From assembly GCA_963632375.1 (NCBI GenBank), contig CAVGUB010000111.1, positions 15,913 through 79,912 on the forward strand: a DNA stretch of 64,000 bases, read 5' to 3'. How positions within the stretch are numbered: position 1 is the stretch's first letter; the number at the start of each line of letters is the position of its first letter. The position numbers were made by a program, and so were the translations under genes. A model generated the notes under the pieces. The model had not been told where the DNA came from. It saw only the letters and a program-made list of their open reading frames with translations, and ran no database searches. Source of the DNA: Phocaeicola dorei. GTDB taxonomy: Bacteria > Bacillota_I > Bacilli_A > RFN20 > CAG-826. This document shows, in pieces, positions 43,191 to 56,294 of the stretch.

Positions 43191-45059
43191 TTAATTATTA
43201 GGGAAATTTGTATGCTCCCAATTACTATTTCTTGCACGTTCTTGTACTATTTGTGATACTTCCATATCTTTAACAGGATCCTTAAATTCATCTTTTGGTC
43301 TAATAGAAGGTCTTGTTAAATTAAATCCTTGAATAGGATCAACTATTGGTACATAAATATTGCCATGATAAAAACTTCCTGCACCAGCATCACCAAAATC
43401 ATTCAACTTTATAGAACTCTTTGTAACTGTATCTTTACCATATTGTACATAATTGTTATACATACTTTGTATATCTCTACCTTCTGGGCGACTAAGATGT
43501 TTTAAGAATGGTTCTGATGAAGGATCAATGTCTAATAACTTATCACTAGCATAACAAGCGAATGTTAAGAAAAGACCTATATTATTACATTTAAATGTTT
43601 TTGTTTCTTCATCAAAACTAACATTTGGATTTTGTAATTCTCTAAACTTGGTCATTATTTCCATCTTAGTTAAACCAGGATTTTCTGAAATTCAACGATT
43701 TATTTCATTTACTTGTTGTAACGTAGTGAAATCTGGAACTTGCTCACCACCTTCATTTCTTACAGGCAATGCAACACGTTTAATTAAACTAGAACCATCT
43801 CATATAAGTTTTTTAGTATCGCCGGCTTTAAGTTTCTGATTACCAAATATAACAGTTGATGTGTCTGCGGCTTTGAACTGAGTTATATATGGCATCATTT
43901 CATCCAAGTTATTATTGTGTACAGGCTTATAATCATCAGTAACAGGTGTTCCAGCATTTCAAGCTTGGAATGCCATCCAGCCTTTATCTGCAGCTCTTTC
44001 TGGATTCAAGGAAATTACTGCCTGAGATTGTGTTAAGTCACCTTTTGCAACTTTAATTGCCAAAGTATCTTTATCATATTGTTCCGTAGTAGATCCTGTT
44101 TTCCCACTAGAACGTCTACCTTGTTCATCAAGTTCGGATTCAAAATCTACAGAAATAGTTCTACCTGTATTTGAAATTAGCATATTGAGTAACAAAGCAT
44201 CTTCTGTATAACCTTCCACTGCAGCAGTTGCTTTTATTTTATTTCTATATGTATTAGGTAAAGAAATTTTTAAATAATTTAAAGCCTGTTCAATGTGAGT
44301 ATCGGCAATTGTAGATTTCTCAGATATTTTATACACACCATCTGTTCCTGCAACAATTGCACCTTGTAAAGTATTTCCTCCAGATAAACCTGCATTTACA
44401 ATATTTTGTATTCCAGATTTAATATCAGATCCAGCTTTAGTAGAGTATCCTGTAATTTCAGTATTAGCAAATTTTCCAATTAAATCCTTTGCGTAATCTG
44501 TAATTGTTTTCATTCCAACAGCTGCAGATAAATTATCTAAAATGTTATTATTAAATGCCATAGAACCGCTATTTCTTCTAAAATTAATCAAGTCTTCATT
44601 TGTTAAAACTTGATAATTTTCAGCGTTCTTTTTTAATTCATTAGGCGATACAGTTTTTAATTTTTTCTCAGATATATCATATGTATATATTTGTCCTCTA
44701 TCATCAATTGCAACATCTCCTCAAGCATCTTGAGCATCAAGTGATTCTCTAGATTTTTTATAATCCTCGTAATTAGTTTTTACCAATGAAGCTTTTCTTG
44801 CAAGAGAAAGAATACTTTTCATAGATAAATTATCACCTGAAGGATCACCTGACATAGCAAGTGTATGTTCTACACTTTTAAGAAATGTATTTACATCTGA
44901 GTCTATTCCATTTTCTGTAACTAAATCTATAATTTTCTTTGTAAATTCATTTGTTTTAGAAGTAGAAGAAGAGGCTGTTGTAGTAGCCTCTTCTTGTTTA
45001 CTTCTATTTGTTGTTGGAAGATAAGTAATACCTCCTCCTGCAAATTTTCTAATTATCAT
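43191..45059 (-). CDS. virion-module protein (622 aa), unknown function; 4 in-frame TGA
   Basis: Track ORFs 43191..43664, 43959..44591 and 44721..45059 share a frame, joined by TGA only. ATG 45059 abuts the upstream TAA (45060). Confidence 0.75.
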
Positions 45060-48000
45060 TTATTTCATTAATTTTTCTAACATTCTATTAAGATGTTGTG
45101 TTGCAATTTGTACAGCTCGTTTAGCTTCTCTATCACCCTGAATCGCCATTTGTGCTAAAGGATCCGCTTTTATAGAAGTTTTTCCACCTTGCTTAAAAGA
45201 AAAAGTTTGAGCTGGTCTAGTTACATAGCGTTGGTTTGTGTCATAAATGGATTTCTTATACTTATTTTGTAATTGTTTAACAATCGGTGAGTTCATAAAA
45301 TTTGTATAAGCAGTTCTATTAGCATCACTCAATATTCAATTATCAAATTCTGCTTTATTCTCAGTTGTATCAGCTTCGTATGCAGAATCAAATTGGGTAT
45401 GCAATAGCTTGTCTAATTCGTCATTATATTTACTTTGTAAATCATTTATTTCATATGTTTGAGCAAGATCATTCTTCTTATTTCAAGCATCACGATAATT
45501 TTGACGTACCTGATACATATAAGGATTTACATTATTTACTCACTGTTCTTGCTTCTGACTCGCATCAAGTTCTGCACCACGGCTTCTTACATTGGCAAAA
45601 TATTGAGATTTTTGATTAGCTGCTTGTGTATCTAATGAACGTTGTTTATTAATTCTTTCAACATCTTGTGCATTTCAAGAATCTACATATCTTGTTATAT
45701 TATCACCTTTTTGTTGTTCTATATTAGATATTTTGTCAGCACGTTGTAATTCTCCCGCCATATTTGAATTGACATCAGATGAATTAAACTGAATGTCTCT
45801 ATATGGATTTTCAGCTAACCTTGTAGAGTTATCAATACTAGCTGTTGAAAAACGTTGACCCTCAAGTCTTGGTGTATCAAATTTAACAGAATATAAAGCA
45901 TTATTAGCTTTTTGTTTATCCTTATAAACTGAATTTACAGCAGCAACATTACTAATCATTGAGCCCAAATCCATTAAATTAGGAATATTTGCTTTTAGCG
46001 CTTGCCCAAAAGAACCACCGCTGAACTTATATATTTTACCACCTTTACGTAACATTATACCTCCATCTTGTAAAGATCCAACTTGCTTTGGTGTTTGTTG
46101 TGATGCTAAACGTACTCTAGATTGTGGTACTAAACGTGGTACGTTAGATCGTGATACTAAACGTTGTAATCTAAATCTAGATTGTGCTGCTAAATGTGGT
46201 ACTTTAGATTGTGGTACTGAAGGTTGTACTTTAGATTGTGGTACTGAAGGTTGTACTTTAGATTGTGGTACTGATCTTGATCCTGCCATATTTCTTCATG
46301 CACGTCAATCTCAAGAACCTTTTTCAAAAGTATCTGGTTTAAATAAATGTGGATATTTATATGCTAAATCACGTAAGTAAATATCTCTAGATGAATTATG
46401 CTTCAATATAGATGTATTAAAGTCTTTAGCTGCACGATTCAAATCACTTGCTGAAATATTTTGTGCAATAAATTTATCAATATTTTGATTTCCAAACCCA
46501 CCAAACATATCTCTGACAGCATATCCTATCGTAGAACGAGCTTCTGGATTAGATGATTCAAATGTAGCTTCTCCTATTCTATCCGTAACTTTTCTATTGC
46601 GATTATACCAATGACCTGATTTTTCAGATTTATTGAATTTAATTCCAAATGAATCCAGTGCTTTTTTAGCATCACCATCTGATAGTTCAATACCCAAATC
46701 TTTGGCTTCAGATTTAACTTGTGCAATAAGTTCCTTCTTAGAACCATTTGCGGATTCAACCATTTCTTGAATCTCAGAAGCAGTTTTCTTTAATTCCTTA
46801 TCACCAACTTTGGCTGTATGCTTAACTTCATCAACATCTGCTAATGTGTCCTTAATCAAATTTCTTTGACCAATGCCTTTACGTATTGATTTTGCTGCAC
46901 CAGCACCGAATAAAATACCAGAAGATAAACCTCTACCTAAATCAACTAAATCTTGAGATGTTAAATCTTCTCCAGAGATAACCTTTTTAAGTGGATTTAT
47001 CATTGATGTCATACCTGCTACCGTAGCAAGAGTCAACAATGGTTTGGCAACTTTACGTATACCTGCAATAGCTTTTGCAGATTTTCCAGCTTTTGCAAAA
47101 ACTCCAGCTAAAGGTATCATAGACGCAACATCTAAAGCAAGTCCAATTGCTAAATCTTTACCTGCCCCAGAAACACCTGATTCACCTTGATTTCCTTGTG
47201 CCTTATCGGCTTTATAACGAAGTATACTACCTCCAATACCAGATAAACCTCCAACAATATTTCCAATTGGTCCAAACATACTAGCACCAACTCCAGCCAA
47301 ATCTAAACCTGCTGCCATTAATTGTTGTTTTTCAGCAGTAGACAAACCACCGTCAGAACCATTAAGTTTGTGGTCTTTGATTACATCCTTTTTAGCATCA
47401 GTTTCAAAAGTTTTAGTCCTTGTTGTAGGAGCAAGAACTATTCCACCATATTGTAGTTTAGATAATTTATTTCAATCAATTTTACCCCCATTCGCACGCT
47501 TTCCTAATTTGGTATGTACGTTACTAATGTGTGGGTTTTCTGTTTCTTGATAACTTATACCCCTGCTTTTTACTTTAGATAATGCTTCTAATTGGGATGT
47601 CGTTGCTTTTTCCCCATTCATATATCGTTTTAACAATTCCATATTTTCAGGTGCAACTTTAACTGGTGCATGATTGTCACCTCAATAAATTCATGTATTA
47701 CCCTCTCTATCGGAAGCTATTGTGACGTCTTGACCATTATTTCTAAATGTACGTTTTACACCCAATTCTTGGTCACCACGTCATTGTCACGCGCTTGGAT
47801 TTAAGGCTTGGCCGGATGTTGCATAACCTGCAACTTTCCATCCTGTAGCATTTGCCAATGCTTCTCTAGAATCAAATTTATGAGCAGTACCATCCGCATC
47901 AAAATAAACATATTGTGGAACATATACCCCAGCATAATTACGTTTAGTTGGATCCAAATATGCATACACTTTTTGCCCTTCTGGAACACCTTCAAAGAAA

Positions 48001-49502
48001 CCTGTTGCATCGACGTGTCCAGCTCCTTTTATATTATTTGTTCTATAAAAATCATATAATTCTGGACTGTATTGTGTATCGGAATTATAGCTAGTATATT
48101 CACCATAATTAGATTTATCATCAGCTGCAAATCCGTTCCAAATTCTATCACCCATAAATCGAACCTTACTAGCATTTGCTGCATCGTATCAAGCTGCTCA
48201 ATCAGGTGAATTTTTATTACTAATAAAACTACCAATATATTGAGCATACAAATCAGGGTGAGCAATGATTTCATCTCTTGTTCTGAGTATTCCATTTACA
48301 AGGAAACCGTTTTCGTATTTAGTACCTTTAAATGGTGCAAGCCTTCCCAAATACCAATTTTTATAATCCCCAAAGATACCTCCGTTTACACTAAATGTGC
48401 CATCATCGTTTTTAGTAATAGTTGCCCCATTTGAGCCAGCTCAAGAGTCTTTATTCCCACCTCATTCATAATTATTGGAATCGTCAGAATCACCTGATGT
48501 TCCATTTCCACTTGATGCTGGAGTATCTTTTGAGAATCCTATCAGTTTAAGAAAATCAAGATCGTTTTGAGTTGCAGTACCCTTTCGTACTCTATCTTGT
48601 AAATCATTGAAAAATGTTTCTCTATTTTCAGGAGTAAGTCCCACATTACTAAGATATGTTCTTAATCTCTTTAAATCGGATTCATGACCTTTTCAAGCAG
48701 ACATGTCAAAACCTGGGGCGTTCATAATATCGTCAATATTAGAAGATCCATAAATGTTATTAAAATTGTTTTGAACAATGCCCCATTTCGCTTTATTAGA
48801 TGCAGAATCTTCTTCGCCTTCTTTATATGGATCAAACCAACCAAAACCACGATCCCATTTTAATCTAGGACCTTTATATTCAACAGGTTCTTCATTCATA
48901 TCTACATATTTCATATATTCTCCACTACGTTTAAATCTGTCGTTAGCAGTATGAAACGTAGCTTGCATTGTTTTTCTAAAATTAGAATCATTTGGAGATG
49001 CAGAAATACCTTGAGCATATTGGCTAGTAACATTATTACCGTTTGAATCATATACTTCTATAGTATTGTTCTCAGGGTTATATCGAGCTTCATTGCCATC
49101 TTTAATAGCTTTTGCAGCAACATCATACATTCCACGCATTCCAAAGTCAGAAGACGAATACGCATTGTAAAGTCTATCCAATGCTGTTTGTCCAGAGATA
49201 GTTCGTCCATTCATTGTAAACTTACCCAATGTTGGAGCGACAAATTTATCATCGGAAGACATTCCTTCATAATTACCATGCTCTGCATCAGTTTGATTTA
49301 ATGTACTTGTAACAGCTTTTAATAAAGAATTTTCCCCACTTCTATAATCGTCCTTTGTTAGATTATCGCTTCAATCCACACCTTGTTCTTCTGGATTTGG
49401 AATTGATTCATCAATCGCTTTTTCAGCTTGTTTAAATCCTTCTTTACGTGTCTTTTCTAAATCTTGCTCACTAAGTACTCTTTTTTTCTTTTTTTGTGCC
49501 AT
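45060..49502 (-). CDS. giant virion-module protein (1480 aa) with glycine-rich hydrophobic segment and internal 9-aa repeats; about 18 in-frame TGA
   Basis: Track ORFs 45060.., 45675.., 46311.., 47787.., 48462.. and 48693.. share a frame, and all gaps were read with only TGA. ATG 49502 follows an in-frame TAG at 49551 and a terminator hairpin. Confidence 0.75.
46114..46274 (-). repeat. in-frame 27-nt tandem repeat array (about 6 units, 2.7 of them perfect)
   Basis: ACTTTAGATTGTGGTACTGAAGGTTGT occurs at 46201 and 46228, with a partial copy at 46255 and degenerate copies back to 46114. It encodes SVPQSKVQP repeats. Confidence 0.8.
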
Positions 49503-49512
49503 ATATATATAA

Positions 49513-49551
49513 TTAAAAAAGGAGGTGAGGTTTATATCGACCTCAACCTCC
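49513..49551 (-). terminator. rho-independent terminator after the 92-aa gene
   Basis: On the minus strand: GGAGGTTGAGGT-cgatataa-ACCTCACCTCC (one bulge) followed by TTTTTT. Confidence 0.65.
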
Positions 49552-49578
49552 TAAAAAGAAAAAATCTTATTCCTTATA

Positions 49579-49857
49579 TTACTTTACTTTACGTACAGAT
49601 TTCTTACAAATTTTACCACCTTTACGCATAAACTGTTGCTCTTGTGGTTGTTCACCTGCAACAGGTTGTGCATTTTGAAGCATTTCCATAATCATCTGTG
49701 CTAAAGCAGCAGCTGCATCAGGGCCAATTTGTTGAATAATTTCCTGAGCCATTTGTGCAAGTTGTTGCATCATCTGATCTTGCTGCCCATCTTGTGGCGC
49801 TTCTTGTACAGGAGCTACTGGTGCGGCTCCGCCTTCTTGTAATTTCTTTATATACAT
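49579..49857 (-). CDS. small Q/A-rich protein (92 aa), own promoter and terminator; no TGA
   Basis: ATG 49857 and TAA 49579. It is preceded by a 245-nt non-coding region and followed by a terminator. Its composition is Q/A/M/E-rich with basic termini. Confidence 0.75.
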   Translation of the reverse strand: MYIKKLQEGGAAPVAPVQEAPQDGQQDQMMQQLAQMAQEIIQQIGPDAAAALAQMIMEMLQNAQPVAGEQPQEQQFMRKGGKICKKSVRKVK

Positions 49858-49923
49858 AATATATTATTTTTATATTAACTAATCTTCTTCTTATTGTGAA
49901 ATATTCATTATTTCTATTTTGGA

Positions 49924-49931
49924 CAAAAATA
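49924..49931 (-). promoter_or_regulatory. candidate Bacteroidota-type -7 promoter element (TAnnTTTG) for the 92-aa gene
   Basis: The minus strand reads TATTTTTG 66 nt upstream of ATG 49857, with TTG-containing sequence about 17-23 nt further upstream. Motif match only. Confidence 0.35.
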
Positions 49932-49989
49932 ATAAAAATAATTTATAAAAACAATAGCAAATTTTATTGTAAAGTTATAAACATATATT

Positions 49990-49997
49990 TAATTTTG
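49990..49997 (+). promoter_or_regulatory. candidate plus-strand TAnnTTTG -7 element
   Basis: TAATTTTG on the plus strand with ATTG about 20 nt upstream, roughly 100 nt upstream of a plus-oriented terminator hairpin. Motif match only. Confidence 0.25.
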
Positions 49998-50070
49998 TAT
50001 TGCGATATAATTAGAACAGAGTGTGAACGCTGCTACGGCAAACTACATTAAAATATTTTTTCGATCGCAT

Positions 50071-50100
50071 ATCCCAGGTTGTTATAGCCTGGGATTTTTT
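50071..50100 (+). terminator. hairpin with a plus-strand T-run (plus-oriented intrinsic terminator)
   Basis: ATCCCAGG-ttgttatag-CCTGGGAT followed by TTTTT on the plus strand. On the minus strand the stem is followed by ATGCGATCG, not a T-run. Confidence 0.5.
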
Positions 50101-50102
50101 AT

Positions 50103-50693
50103 TTATGGGTGATCCACATATTGCGGATCTCTATTCTCTTGTCGAGTCATTTCTCCAAAAACATATCGACCTAATGCTTTATAATCAGCGTCTAATTTGC
50201 TTCGTTTGGCTTTTTTAGCTTTTCTAATAATAACTTTAGTTGAAATTCTACTGAAAATTCGTTCTCCACCATTTAAAGTAAATTGAAGACTTCCGTCGCC
50301 TTTTAAGATACATAGTTCATTTCTTGGTAGATCTGTAAATTCTTTACTCTCTAAAATTTCAACTTCGTCACCTTCATAAACATCCGAATCTTTATTTAAT
50401 TCAATAACATAATAAACGTTTTCTGCTTCTAAAGGTTCTTCACTATCAGGTTCTCCTTCATAAACAACCGATACCTCATCATCTTCCCCGACAAAAATAA
50501 TATCAAGTGGAATTTTAGTATCTTTCATTCAAAATCATATAAAGTCTTGTGGGTCATCTCGATAGTCAAAAAATGCACCTTCATTATCAGCTAAAGAAGT
50601 TATTCCTTGTAAACCTTTCTCTTTTTCTTCTTCCGTTTTTAATCAAAGAAGATTATATTCATGTTTATCTATTTTTACTTTAATCGTATCCAT
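50103..50693 (-). CDS. DUF192 domain protein (196 aa); 3 in-frame TGA
   Basis: The track shows 50103..50528 only. Extending through TGA gives MDTIKVKI ... EKGLQGI ... FIWFWMKDTKIPLDIIFVG, the DUF192 pattern (G-L-x-G ... F-W-M-K-x-T-x-I-P-L-D). ATG 50693 overlaps the upstream TAA. Confidence 0.8.
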
Positions 50694-51799
50694 TATTTAA
50701 CTTTCTTTATAAGATTTGAATTATCGTCACAATTATGAAATAAAGTATCTGCAATTAATTTACCTGCCTTTAAAGCAGATTCATCATCACCTTTCTTTCA
50801 AAGAGCTTCTATTTTACTTGTAAGGGAACTTTCAAATATCATTTCATCTCTTTCTATCTCTGCAACTTGTTCTATCTTTCCAGCAGAATCCACCGATACA
50901 ACAGGTATACCTTTTCTTGTTACCTTTTCAGCAAGCTCTGGATTTACTAAATCCATATTATGTTTTCGGGCATGTAAAGCACCTTCTGGGATCAAAATTG
51001 ATCCTCCATTTTGAAACTTACTTGGTAACTTCATACCACGTTTACCCATAACTAGATTTGTTTGTCCATTATAACGGTTGAAGTTCTGATTTTCAAGATC
51101 TTGTGAATAGTTAGAAGCTTTTCGTAATGTATTAACTTGACTTAACTCGGTTAATAATTTGTTACGTTCGTTTTGTTCTTTAATATAGTCTTGTATTTTT
51201 TTCCTAGAACCACCTAATAAGAAATTAACACTCGTGCCACCATATTCTAAAGCTGTATTTATATCAGATACGGCTCCTCCGAATGCATCACTAACCGCAT
51301 CAACATCAATAGATTTTTCAGCATCTGCTACTTTTGCACCACCTAATGCTAAAATATTACCAGGTAAGAAGTTTTGAGAATTATTCAAAATTCTAGCAGC
51401 ATCACTAATTCCCATTTTTTTAGCATCATCTTTATGAATGTTGCTACTTCTTAAACCTGTAGCATCCATTGCAGTATCCACTGCTTTGGCAGCAACACCT
51501 GCTGCCATTGCAAATGGATTACCTGATTGAATTGCTGCATCTTCTATACCCGTTCTAACTTGATTTTGTAAAGTTGCAGTTGGATCAGATGCATATTTTG
51601 AATTTTCATGTACAGCACTTTGTGCTGAAGATAACAATGAATTTCCTAATGTAAATAGACTAGATTGGTCTGTACCCGTAGGACCTCCCAAAGTGTTGTT
51701 TTGGTTTGTGTTATTTCCATTCGGATTAACTCCATTAGAAGAAGGATCCTTTTGTTTGGCTTTATTAGGATTAAAAAAGTTTTGTACTCAGTTTCACAT
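50693..51799 (-). CDS. virion-module protein (368 aa), unknown function; 3 in-frame TGA
   Basis: Track ORF 50798..51691 extended in frame: upstream to ATG 51799 (in-frame TAA at 51812), downstream through TGA 50798 to TAA 50693. Confidence 0.7.
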
Positions 51800-51800
51800 T

Positions 51801-54800
51801 TTATGAATAACTTAATGTATACAATGTTTGTAAAGCAGTTATTATAACCAAATCTTTTCCAGAATATTTAACCCTAACTTTACAATACTTATCTCTAATT
51901 CTAGTTGACTTAGCGTCTTTATCTAGTTCGGTTTGTTTTGTTCCATCACTAGACGTAATTCTATATTTAGAACGATAACGAATAGGTTCTATATTTAAAT
52001 ATCAAGAATCCTCTTTATATTGAATATTACCTAAACGTCTACCATATTTATTTATATTTTTACATTCTTGAGTTACATTTAAATAGTAATTATTTAATGT
52101 AGTATCTCATTGAATATCAACGTTTTTAAATTCTTGTGATGATTGAATTTTAACTTTATCTAATCCAGATGCAGTACGAATCTCTGATTCTTTAGCTGGA
52201 TTAAATTTAGTATCTCATTCAGATTCTCCTTTAAATGTATTTTGTCTAAAAATACCCGCCTTATTAAATCCATAAACATCACCTTCTATTGTAAATTCCA
52301 ATTCTTTAGGTTGTACATTATTTGATATAATAACTAAATTATCAAATATCTTATGTGCACCTACATCTTGATTTACAACAAATTCCATCTCAAATGGTTC
52401 TTGCGTTTCATACCATTTAGTAGGAAGTATTTGATTTGTGAATTTGGCATCTTCATAATCTATTTCATCAAATATTCCCGATCTTCCATGAATGTAGAAT
52501 CCGTTCCTGAGATATGCGTTTTGTTGTTTTGTGTTAATTTCAATATCATTGGAAGATTTTAAAACTATACCAATAACTTCATTTGTTGTATAACTTGCAT
52601 CTCCATATCCAAATTCACAAGAACAATACACATTAAAATAAACCGGAACAAAATCAATATTATATTTAGTTTTAAAGTAATTTAAAACTTCATCATAAGA
52701 TTTCGATTGTAAAACAATTGGATAATTATCTGAATTTATTTCAAAAACATCAGAATCTTTCAATTCAACATTTATATTTTCATCATCATCATTTAAATAA
52801 CTTGTGGTTATTTTTTGAATTATAACAGAGTTTAACTTATCGACACTCATATTAGGTGAAGGTGTTAATTCTGTATTGAATTTTTCCCCAAGTATTCATT
52901 CTGAATTAGAAGATCTGACCCCATAATTACAATTCTTATTATCATATATATGTGCTAAAACTTTAGCTCGATTTTGATCCAAAGAATAAAATATGTTATC
53001 GATATTTTCACTATACAAAGGAGTTCAAGAATATCGTGTTATTCACTTACCCATTCTTTCATTATAACACATATTTCAAGTTGTATCTTCACTTTCATTA
53101 TAGAACGTGAACATTACATCACCTTTATTGTTGTTATAATGAGTTTTAACGTTTTTGATACCAATAGTTGGATACTTATCTGCTTCAGAAAGTTTAATAT
53201 AATTATTTAAGAATTGTTGAATCTTCATATCAGATATTATCTGCATCTGATTATTAGAACCAACAACCCAAATCTTCTTAGCGGTAGTATCAACTCCATA
53301 AACACCTACCGGTGTTTTAATTATAGATTCTTGCCAAATACTTCCAAAATCAGGATTTAAAACTGTTACTTGGTTTTGTAATACACCTGCTCCATACATA
53401 TGTATTGATTGACCACTTTGTGTAGCCAGTAAAGCTTTTTCGTTTACTGGAACCAAACCAACACCATGTTCAAATACACACAATAAATTATTACCCCAAG
53501 GAATTAATTTTACTATAGCTCCATATTGTCTTTCAATATCTTGATAATCCAAAGATTTAAAAATTCTAAACGAATTTTCAAATTTTCCAAATGTTTGAAC
53601 ATCACTAAACATTATACGATTATCAAACAACTCTTTTAAATATGGTACATTAGGTACAATAAAATTTTGTAATTTGCCCAAAGTTTTACCATAACCCTGT
53701 GCTACAATTTTTGATTCAGCGCCCTTTCCAGACGATGTTATATTAAATCACGAATTTGGAAAGAATGTTCTAGGGTTACCAAGTAACGCTTCCTCATCAA
53801 TGTGAGAATGATCAATACATCTAATACCAAGGTTATAACTTGAAAGACATTTAAATGTTACCCACATTCCCATTGGCACTGCATTTATATCGCCTCTATT
53901 CATTTCAGAATAATCTCCAACGGAATCAGATTTAGTAGATCCTTTTTCTGCAGCATTCCAACCATTAACCATTTTATTATAACCTTTATAATTCTTATAT
54001 CAAGTTTCAGGGTCTATAATTGTATCGTTAATTGGAACAGTACCATCAATAAAATTTCTATTTAAACGAATTGTAATCGTATTTGTATAACAATCACCAC
54101 GATAACAATCCATTGATTTTGTATTAAAATCAACTCTATTAGAAATAGCATAGAACGGACTAGTATCATTTTTTCTAATAGTAAAATAATCCTTTAATTT
54201 ACTTTCAGAATAACCTTGTATTTTTATTTCATATAAGCTATTTGGAATTAGATTAGAATTAACTCCAAGATAATCCGTTCAATTGCCACGTAATAAGAGG
54301 TTTGTGTCTGCATCTCAATCCTTCTCTGAAAAGAATGAAAATTGACTTACATCTTCTGCAGCACCACATTTTGATGCAAAACAATATCCGTTTACGTATT
54401 TAGCCTTTGTGTCTTCTTGTACGTATGTCAAATTAGTATTTAGTAGTGTTTTGTTTTCTAAAGACTCACCTTTAATATAAAAGTGCCTATCTTCAGATGT
54501 ATCCGTTAACAACTCACCTGTTTGTACTTGACGTAAAACAAATTCACTACCATCAAACCTTGATTTTAATTCTGGGACACTTGTACAATCCAATGTTAAT
54601 AATGCACTTCCTTTTGAAGTATCTGTGTATATTTTTCTAGATTCAAAATCAGTTGTTAACATTGGTTTGATATAAGTTACATAATTAGCACTAGATGTAG
54701 CAACTTTATTTGCCAATGCAGCGGTTACAACATCACCGGTCACAACAGCTCTTGCAACATTTAACACTTTGAATCATTTACTTAATGCTTTACGTTTTTT

Positions 54801-56294
54801 AGCTTCAGTTGCTGATAAAAATCCTTCTGTAAAAAACATTCCGGTTTTACCATCATCATCAAGCTCGTATAACATAGGAATGTAACTAACTCCATCGATT
54901 CCAAGTGCTAAACCTTGCCCTAATGTATTAGCAATACGTTTTTGTCTTACTAAGAAATATCCTTTTACACCTAATTCTTTTAATTCTGAAATAACTAAAT
55001 CATCTAATTCAAAATTAAAATACAAAGGTTTTACGGTATTATTTGAATAATTAATTACTTGGTACTTAGGCAATTTAAATACACCAAATGTATTGTTTAG
55101 ATACTTTTCATTTGTAATAAAAGTATCTCTTTCATATTCTTCAGTTGATTCTAAATTAATATCGTTGTCTTGATTTATATCTGTAAATTCACAACCTTTT
55201 AAGTTAAAAACAGGTGTTAATGAATTATCATTTAAAATATAAACTATACCCAGTCTATAAATTTCATCAGGTCAATATCCTAGTCTATAATAATTATTCC
55301 ATGGCGAATAGTATTCTGTACGAGATTGATCGTCCTCAACATTATAACTATAATCAGAAGAATTAATTCAGCCAATACTTTCAGAAGATTGTTTTAATGT
55401 AACTTTTACTTTATATGATCATTTTTGTAATTCAGCAACATTTATATTATTCTTCTGAACATTACCAAAAAAGAGCATATTTTGTACTTGTGCTTCTGTT
55501 TTAGCCGCAGTAATTAAATTATATTGGATATTTAATTCATTTACAGTAACCTCTACGGTATCTTCATAACCCGTGATATTTACTAATTCTGTTTCAGAAT
55601 TGAACTTAATAGGGTCTTTCAACTGCATTGCTTCTATTTGGCTAACCCCATTTGTATCACTAAATTCCCTAGTATAATACAAATATATTCTTGAATAACT
55701 TTTATCCAAATTTGATATTCTTAACGAAATCGTTTTATCAGTCACCTCATTTTGCATGGTACCGACTATAGAACCTATATTAGAAACCGTGCCTTTGTAA
55801 ATAATAATTTGTCCTGATTCGGTTAAGAAATTTGTTTTATTATCATCTTCATCAGATAAACGTAAATAAAATGTATATATACCACCTTTTAATTGTCCAG
55901 AAGTTTCAACTCCATTTAAATCAATCACCGGGAAACAATCAGTACTCTTAATTAGCCTAGTTGTTTCATCAATATTTTCTTCTTTATAAAGATTTGTTTG
56001 ATTTATTTGATTCCTCTTTATTATCTTGAATCGATTATCTTCAATTTTTGAAAAACGTGTATTTATAATTCTAGGTGGATTTAAATCATCTGTCATAAGA
56101 AGATTAACTGTACCATCATAAGATGGTTGGCATTCAATCGAAACAGGATGATTCAAATCACCTAATTTGAAGTTTTTTATGGTAAACCCCTTTATAGATC
56201 CATCACTTTCTAAAATGTTTTGTAATGCACTATAAGTATGTGAAAAAGATCCTTCGTTGGGGTATTTATATATGTTAAATTTAATCGTACCCAT
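51801..56294 (-). CDS. large tail/structural protein (1497 aa), family not recognised; about 14 in-frame TGA
   Basis: Track ORFs 52215.., 53076.., 53748.., 54315.., 54774.. and 55419.. share a frame, joined only by TGA. ATG is at 56294 (in-frame TAA at 56307) and TAA stop at 51801. Confidence 0.75.

Follow-up and report, generated by a model that had tools for sequence, protein, structure and literature searches.

The window analyzed here is a stretch of 64,000 nucleotides of contig CAVGUB010000111.1 (C111, 143 kb; 139 open reading frames (ORFs) and 44,475 aa on this phage contig), and it belongs to a crAss-like phage. Past the muzzle gene of this phage, four neighbouring proteins share a short Gly-Gly peptide, hereafter called the tag, which is the subject of this work. 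The minus strand between ~19.4 and 63.6 kb is shattered under the standard genetic code, and long ORFs appear when TGA is read as Trp, while reading TAG as Gln brought no improvement on this strand of the window. The phage uses opal recoding (TGA=Trp).

Genes past the muzzle gene

The muzzle gene (51801..56294, minus strand, 1497 aa), which matches Pfam crAss_MUZ (E = 6.8e-31) and crAss_MUZ_C and is a virion structural protein in PHROGs, was used as the anchor of the gene order. The tagged genes begin directly 3′ of it. On the same minus strand follow p368 (50693..51799, 368 aa), p196 (50103..50693, 196 aa), p92 (49579..49857, 92 aa), p1480 (45060..49502, 1480 aa) and p622 (43191..45059, 622 aa), and then come three giants: p2981 (2981 aa), which has an AAA/helicase core, and two proteins of 3366 and 1558 aa. 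p196 is a DUF192 protein (Pfam E = 1.1e-14; similar to PDB 3m7a and 3pjy). Searches of PHROGs and Pfam left the four tagged proteins p368, p92, p1480 and p622 without a family. As the first gene past the muzzle gene, p368 stands at the place of C1 in crAss001. In that phage the genes past the muzzle gene code for the cargo proteins C1 and C2 and for giants associated with RNA polymerase, all found in virions (PMC10172136). Based on gene position and on this crAss001 proteomics, the four tagged proteins are probably packaged as virion cargo (PMC10172136).

Two scans of IMG/VR gave 45 related loci, on contigs of 91-270 kb. TAG is read as Gln in 44 of them and TGA as Trp in one. These loci present the same gene order, namely hub, muzzle, p368-like, an optional extra gene, DUF192, small protein, p1480-like, p622-like and giant. 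Conservation was counted over 22 distinct relatives, the closest one being L007.

All nine peptides quoted in the earlier note on this DNA were found where it had placed them, in the TGA=Trp translation and with coordinates recomputed by hand. p622 starts with MIIRKFAGGG, in which the tag RKFAGGG (residues 4-10, 45030..45050) is followed by ITYLPTT. p92, whose gene is free of TGA and whose sequence is rich in Q, A, P and E, bears a tag at both ends: KKLQEGG (residues 4-10, 49828..49848) in the start MYIKKLQEGG, and FMRKGGK (residues 76-82, 49612..49632) before the basic tail ICKKSVRKVK. The large p1480 presents several tags: KLQYGG (residues 682-687, 47442..47459), followed by IVLAPTT, a triple cluster of SLQDGG, IMLRKGG and KIYKFSGG (residues 1143-1163, 46014..46076), and SFKQGG near the C-terminus (residues 1435-1440, 45183..45200). 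Then, in p368, SKFQNGG (residues 260-266, 51002..51022), followed by SILIPEG, opens the conserved C-terminal domain.

The pattern [KR][FL]xxGG, by which these peptides had been described, covers four of the nine (KFAGGG of p622, KLQYGG of p1480, KLQEGG of p92 and KFQNGG of p368). The other five (SLQDGG, MLRKGG, KFSGG, FKQGG, FMRKGG) are looser variants; the pattern was too narrow at its left side and omitted the hydrophobic residue two positions past Gly-Gly. The tag is better written as [KR]-hydrophobic-[QKR]-x-G-G-x-hydrophobic; a Pro frequently stands 2-3 residues upstream of it, and the consensus reads (I/V-P)-K-[FLY]-Q-x-G-G-x-hydrophobic; MIIRKFAGGGITYLPTT and MYIKKLQEGGAAPVAP are examples of tag peptides. 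The extended context GG-I-x-x-L-[AP]-P-T-T, also noticed earlier, is indeed present in p622 and p1480. It turned out to be lineage-specific, as L007 reads KLQFGGSIQNTSA at the p1480 site.

Enrichment was assessed by permuting residues within each protein, in 2000 rounds, over all ORFs of the phage contig. The strict pattern occurred 4 times in the four-protein block, for 0.23 expected, and [FLY][QKR]xGG, a pattern derived from the relatives independently of the window, occurred 6 times, for 0.40 expected. For both patterns, none of the 2000 shuffles reached the observed count. The bare GG was only mildly enriched in the block (24 vs 16.2 expected). Outside the four proteins, the strict pattern was absent from the 64-kb window. 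The motif is thus well above what composition predicts. It is also conserved at equivalent positions, as described below, so that neither of the two outcomes named beforehand as fatal to the proposal, a lack of enrichment and a lack of positional conservation, was observed.

Conservation of the tag in relatives and tag-like sites in crAss001

In 22 of 22 relatives, the p622-like protein starts with M-x-I-[IL]-(P)-K-[FL]-[QA]-x-G-G. Among 19 sequences of this family, which share ~20% identity, M1, K5, G9 and G10 belong to the only 11 invariant columns, and all four lie in the first ten residues. The AlphaFold2 model of p622 (19 sequences; mean predicted local distance difference test (pLDDT) 60.8) leaves residues 1-36 unstructured (pLDDT 24-30), although no other part is as conserved, with a folded body from ~38 on; Foldseek of this model against the PDB gave no match below E = 1. 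Invariance within a disordered leader is the hallmark of motifs that are read in trans.

When 1.84 billion representative proteins were searched by profile, 1460 clusters of p622 homologues were recovered. The best 150 of these comprise 131 full-length proteins, each representing a cluster at 50% identity, and 19 fusions. Hydrophobic-x-x-GG is present within the first 30 residues of 117 of the 131 full-length homologues, and the remaining 14 mostly show near-variants that are off by one position or in spacing (FKQQGG, LQKGD, FQQGS, etc.). The distance between Met1 and the tag is free, the tag hydrophobic being found at position 1 to 13.

In the 19 fusions (~1100-1275 aa, representatives P0194-P0329), the p622-like half is preceded by a homologue of the C-terminal half of p1480-family proteins. 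The tag lies exactly at the joint in 19 of 19; in many of them a second tag stands 10-15 residues upstream, and another at the protein's own N-terminus. In the window, the start of p622 abuts the stop of p1480 with no spacer (45059/45060). The 19 natural fusions suggest that genes have repeatedly been fused or split at the positions of tags. Tags are located at chain ends and at fusion joints, and they therefore mark module boundaries. The description of the tagged proteins as unrelated, given in the earlier note, has to be restricted, since p622 homologues are in some phages joined to the C-terminal half of p1480-family proteins.

The homologues of p92 measure 95-119 aa in the 22 relatives. 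All of them present K-[FY]-Q-x-G-G inside the first 19 residues, and the columns of the N-terminal tag over 23 sequences read K(22) F(21) Q(23) x G(23) G(23). At the other end, GEPV-[FY]-R-[KR]-G-G-x-L-x-R-R-I-K-K is found in 21 of the 22 relatives; p92 and L007 read QQFMRKGGKICKK. Also, hairpins flank the p92 gene, with an 11-bp stem at 50071-50095, in the gap between the DUF192 and p92 genes, and a terminator-like site at 49526-49545, past the stop (region 49513-50100). This arrangement is consistent with p92 being a separately and highly expressed small gene.

In the homologues of p1480 (909-1681 aa), tags are N-terminal, internal and C-terminal. L007 presents KLQFGG at the place matching KLQYGG and SLKKGGSIPKFQSGG at the place matching the triple cluster, and the relatives show [FY][KR]xGGKLS ~20-30 residues before the C-terminus. 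A 27-nt tandem repeat was also detected in p1480 (46112-46272, 5.7 copies, 80% matches); it codes for 9-residue units (VPQSKVQPS / RLVPQSRVR) located directly N-terminal to the triple tag cluster.

In p368, the N-terminal half is rich in Gly, and residues 261-368 form a conserved C-terminal domain. Its homologues in the 22 relatives range between 369 and 1040 aa, and the relatives found by tblastn align from residue ~261 on, with a tag column reading [IV]PEFQxGGSxNVIPEGALHARKHNMD. The DUF192 protein p196, which bears no tag, belongs to the block throughout the zeta-type relatives; it was found in 3 relatives and is absent from crAss001. The DUF192 proteins of the related loci contained no tag in 4185 aa.

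Of the 147 strict tags counted in the cargo-block proteins of the 22 relatives, 45 fall within 25 residues of the start, 39 within 35 residues of the end, and 63 are internal. The tag density reached 2.26 per 1000 aa in the cargo-block proteins, compared with 0.23 in the hub, muzzle and giant proteins encoded at these loci. The residue directly after GG is variable, and it is Pro in 13 of the 147 tags, which, judging by the small-protein sequences, are the N-terminal tags of the small protein. In 68% of the 147 tags, L, I, V or M occupies the second position after GG. Tandem tags are spaced by 7-9 residues. Taken with the conservation of equivalent positions in distant homologues and the location in an unstructured leader, the enrichment bears out the short linear signal that had been proposed, and a signal common to the proteins of one late module is supported by sequence and model.

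The C1 protein of crAss001 (gp45) resembles the tagged proteins in several respects. It is encoded directly past the muzzle gene, as p368 is directly 3′ of the crAss_MUZ gene, and it presents a Gly-zipper or transmembrane-like segment (residues 139-154, PIGAIVGGVVGLGSAI), to which the Gly-rich segment of p1480 (PIGNIVGGLSGIGGSI) is similar. It has aromatic-x-x-GG sites near both ends (IFDTGG 16-21, and EYTGG/AKGGK at the C-terminus), and further sites were found at 205-210 (FSAYGG), 260-265 (FAEGGG), 371-374 (KDGG), 443-448 and 559-563 (FAYGG). It also contains a tag-headed basic module, residues 371-423, homologous to the tail of the lysozyme of the present phage. In the published work, segments 214-245 and 425-552 of gp45 were resolved, with parts bound to the portal and to the tail barrel, and the portal-bound domain 425-552 was described as one ordered segment (PMC10172136). 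This domain starts at AFGG and includes INEGG. There are also differences: here the tags are distributed among four separate proteins and not one, and the copies in gp45 are more degenerate, with PMC10172136 silent on the motif.

Sequence comparison did not connect p368 itself with gp45. PF25725 (crAss_CARG1) had no match at E<=1 in the whole assembly, and 0 of 19 members of the p368 family matched it at that threshold. By hhalign, the probability of the p368 family against gp45 was below 2%, the best and non-significant match falling on the Gly-rich segment 119-154. A colinear resemblance between p368 and gp45 can be drawn by eye (GGS...PEGA...[VI]EQ.E[VI]...[VI][FI].R[LM]E[VI]); it was not counted as evidence.

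Docking, cleavage or punctuation

The tag is enriched, conserved in position, located in an unstructured segment, specific to one class of proteins and kept through fusion and splitting. For its role, we give an even chance to an uncleaved docking or address element that would be retained on the mature cargo. It would mark one cargo class, namely the small and mid-sized proteins whose genes stand between that of the muzzle and the giant genes of the RNA-polymerase block, and it would be placed where modules meet or end, in leaders, tails and linkers that are flexible. There it may form a small turn in which two hydrophobic side chains meet across Gly-Gly. The turn would dock into a partner, which could lie inside the procapsid, the portal or the tail barrel or else be part of another cargo protein, and this docking would recruit and position each module for ordered ejection. 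The reading by a partner, the absence of cutting and the identity of the partner are what we infer from these sequence patterns.

Docking is favoured over cutting because no conserved protease was found, because Pro can follow Gly-Gly and because the hydrophobic residue at +2 is conserved. Most endopeptidases do not cut before Pro. Also counted for docking were the tandem tags 7-9 residues apart and the gp45 domain 425-552, reported as one ordered piece, with AFGG and INEGG in it.

Several results weigh against a docking element. Of the 147 tags, 84 (57%) lie within 25-35 residues of a protein end, with others at fusion joints, where a processing site would look alike. The AlphaFold2 model of p368 (19 homologues, mean pLDDT 44) was too poor for a fold search or for placing the tag. 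Compared by sequence and by profile with PDB chains, gp45 and PF25725, p368 and its family gave no significant match. The C-terminal domain of p368 is thus unlinked, in these comparisons, to C1's portal-bound domain, and the structural argument therefore rests on the weaker copies of the gp45 type. As a general label of cargo, the tag is contradicted by the giants: p2981 has no conserved tag, and the giants of 3366 and 1558 aa have no copy of the strict pattern and a single match to [FLY][QKR]xGG. LFKGG of p2981 was dropped as a candidate tag, as it is not conserved in relatives. Because p2981 has no conserved tag and homologous giants are packaged in crAss001, the tag is therefore no general ticket into the capsid; it would belong to C1-like, ejectosome-type proteins and not to everything packaged.

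A last point of this kind comes from the 2018 crAss001 gel, of which the matrix-assisted laser desorption/ionization (MALDI) peak lists (PMC6235969, supplementary file 14) were recalibrated on trypsin peaks and searched by peptide-mass fingerprint in bands 1-10 of 13. Bands 3-9 gave gp50 with gp47, gp49 with gp44, the portal protein (11 peptides), gp26, gp22, gp25 and gp23, and bands 1-2 gave gp44 more weakly. gp45 never exceeded the shuffled-sequence background in these ten bands (matched to proteins of ~77 kDa and above), a negative for which many trivial causes are possible. The portal, which is expected to be equimolar with gp45, was clearly detected in the same ten bands. The 2023 study digested one excised band, so its data are not size-resolved (PMC10172136).

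A doubtful but serious alternative is a maturation cleavage site, at which a protease, supplied by the host or so far overlooked in the phage, would cut after Gly-Gly, trimming leaders and tails and separating the modules of precursors. The cut might follow a targeting role of the peptide, as with the T4 capsid-targeting sequence. Gly-Gly at P2-P1 is used by the adenovirus protease, ubiquitin-like proteases and C39 peptidases. Such a site would account for the 84 tags at extreme ends, for the free length of the leader between Met1 and tag, and for the tags, often paired, that are kept at fusion joints, since the same mature products would then arise from fused or separate genes. In gp45, the tag-like sites FSAYGG, FAEGGG, KDGG (371-374) and FAYGG bracket both resolved segments, and the failure of gp45 to rise above chance in the gel, where the portal and seven other virion proteins were found, is what cutting would give. 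Against it stand the Pro after GG in 13 tags and the conserved hydrophobic residue at +2, and tandem tags 7-9 residues apart would yield useless short peptides. The hydrophobic residue of the tag falls at P5 and not at P4, where the sites of adenain, coronavirus PLpro and double-glycine leaders have it. Also, the domain 425-552 was reported as one ordered domain, with AFGG and INEGG inside it, and the text of PMC10172136 makes no mention of proteolytic processing, with 0 occurrences of "cleav" or "protease".

The outcome of the protease search also weighs against cutting. Among catalogued families, no C39, C48, C5 or S78 domain was found on the phage contig. S77 (PF03420) gave no match there either, which is a weak negative, as control genomes were without a match too. 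A C39 peptidase fragment is present on another contig of the assembly bin (C82:14798-15091; bin of 1.28 Mb and 150 contigs). The phage contig does code for a cellular-type ClpP in its early arm, outside the window (C111:132264-132779, plus strand, E = 8.5e-71). Five relatives with the tag, two complete genomes and crAss001 among them, lack ClpP, and it was rejected for this reason as the reader of the tag; judging by this distribution, it is a lineage-specific acquisition. Then, DUF192 was rejected as a universal reader or partner because crAss001 lacks it. In the literature searched, we found no description of the motif, of cargo processing in crassviruses or of a relevant function of DUF192.

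A broader form of the cleavage hypothesis, which we regard as rather unlikely, is a polyprotein-like maturation in Crassvirales, in which the tags would be cut sites, perhaps after serving as address labels, for a protease not recognised so far. If this were true, the mature cargo would be made up of inter-tag modules, regardless of how the genes are arranged, and the pieces of C1 at the tail barrel and at the portal would be separate polypeptides rather than one threaded chain. In the published model (Bayfield et al., 2023, PMC10172136), a single C1 chain runs through the channel of the portal. The nature of the tag bears on this model of one C1 chain spanning the portal.

It is improbable that the tag is structural punctuation without a dedicated reader, that is, a flexible Gly-Gly turn with its hydrophobic residues at module boundaries, which would aid packing, unfolding and threading. 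Tags do occur at joints and in unstructured segments, hydrophobic-x-x-G-G-x-hydrophobic is hairpin-like, and the authors of the crAss001 study propose that cargo unfolds partially for passage through the tail (PMC10172136). However, a plain hinge leaves the near-invariant Lys at -6 and Gln at -4 unexplained, as well as the tag at both ends of a 92-residue protein, and there is nothing to hinge within the first ten residues, where the tag is also found. Finally, chance in Gly-rich and Lys-rich proteins, which might have been suspected from the mild enrichment of GG and from a pattern picked after the data had been seen, is refuted by the composition-preserving shuffles, by the agreement of the pattern derived from the relatives and by position-specific conservation over hundreds of clusters.

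Known systems and tags beyond the block

The nearest known system is the T4 capsid-targeting sequence by function, the adenovirus and double-glycine sites by form, and C1 of crAss001 by homology and context. None of them fits as a family. The T4 sequence comprises ~10 residues at the extreme N-terminus of unrelated internal proteins (IPI-III, Alt), which are packed in the head and injected. It lacks Gly-Gly and is removed by the prohead protease gp21, whose cut falls after Leu/Ile-x-Glu. The N-terminal tags of p622 (MIIRKFAGGG) and p92 (MYIKKLQEGG), which are kept in relatives, resemble it as leaders. In contrast, the present tag is also internal and C-terminal, and it shows no conserved Glu at the required place.

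Adenovirus sites, (M/I/L)-X-G-G|X, are located on core and cement precursors, and pVI is trimmed at both ends, which frees a basic C-terminal peptide. The tag shares with them a hydrophobic residue a few positions before Gly-Gly, the occurrence on several virion-internal proteins and the presence at both ends, so that p92 would resemble pVI. The hydrophobic residue is nevertheless at P5 of the tag, and there was no match to PF00770 or PF02902. The double-glycine leaders, processed by a cognate C39 peptidase, are 15-30 residues long and have their hydrophobic residue at -4. In the present proteins, the leaders count ~9-19 residues to Gly-Gly and the hydrophobic residue is at -5, while the only C39 match is the one on contig C82. 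From both types the tag also differs in that Pro can follow Gly-Gly and in that neither C5 nor C39 is present on the phage contig.

Crassviruses are the most abundant human gut phages and inject several megadaltons of protein. The tag offers a handle to predict cargo in uncultured crassviruses, and a mutable element in the cultivable crAss001. It may also serve as a label to load foreign proteins into particles. In the present phage, it flags two proteins far from the block, a lysozyme and a protein of 257 residues.

The lysozyme is a Phage_lysozyme2 protein of 310 aa with a tag-headed tail, encoded outside the window, ~35 kb past its end (C111:114651-115583, plus strand). The C-terminal tail of this protein, YKDGGSIHIKPENEGK...FARNARKW, aligns with residues 371-423 of crAss001 gp45 at 45% identity (E = 4e-8). 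This gp45 segment, the homologue of the lysozyme tail YKDGGSIHIKPEN...FARNARKW, directly precedes the portal-bound domain. The homologous tail forms the last 55 residues of the lysozyme (KDGGSIHIKPENEGK...FARNARKW). Such a tag-headed basic tail ends dozens of otherwise different metagenomic proteins, including lysozymes and PF25725 cargo proteins. We suggest that the tail may be a portable module for virion loading or DNA binding, and that the tailed lysozyme may be virion-borne rather than an endolysin. In one group of relatives, a tagged glucosaminidase/lysozyme gene lies within the cargo block. The protein of 257 aa, also encoded outside the window, in the lysis region (C111:111317-112090, minus strand), has no family match. 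It presents the tag KKQEGGAVMAVYP internally and KKFQNGGAFTETSL 22 residues before its C-terminus, and is a candidate for an extra cargo protein.

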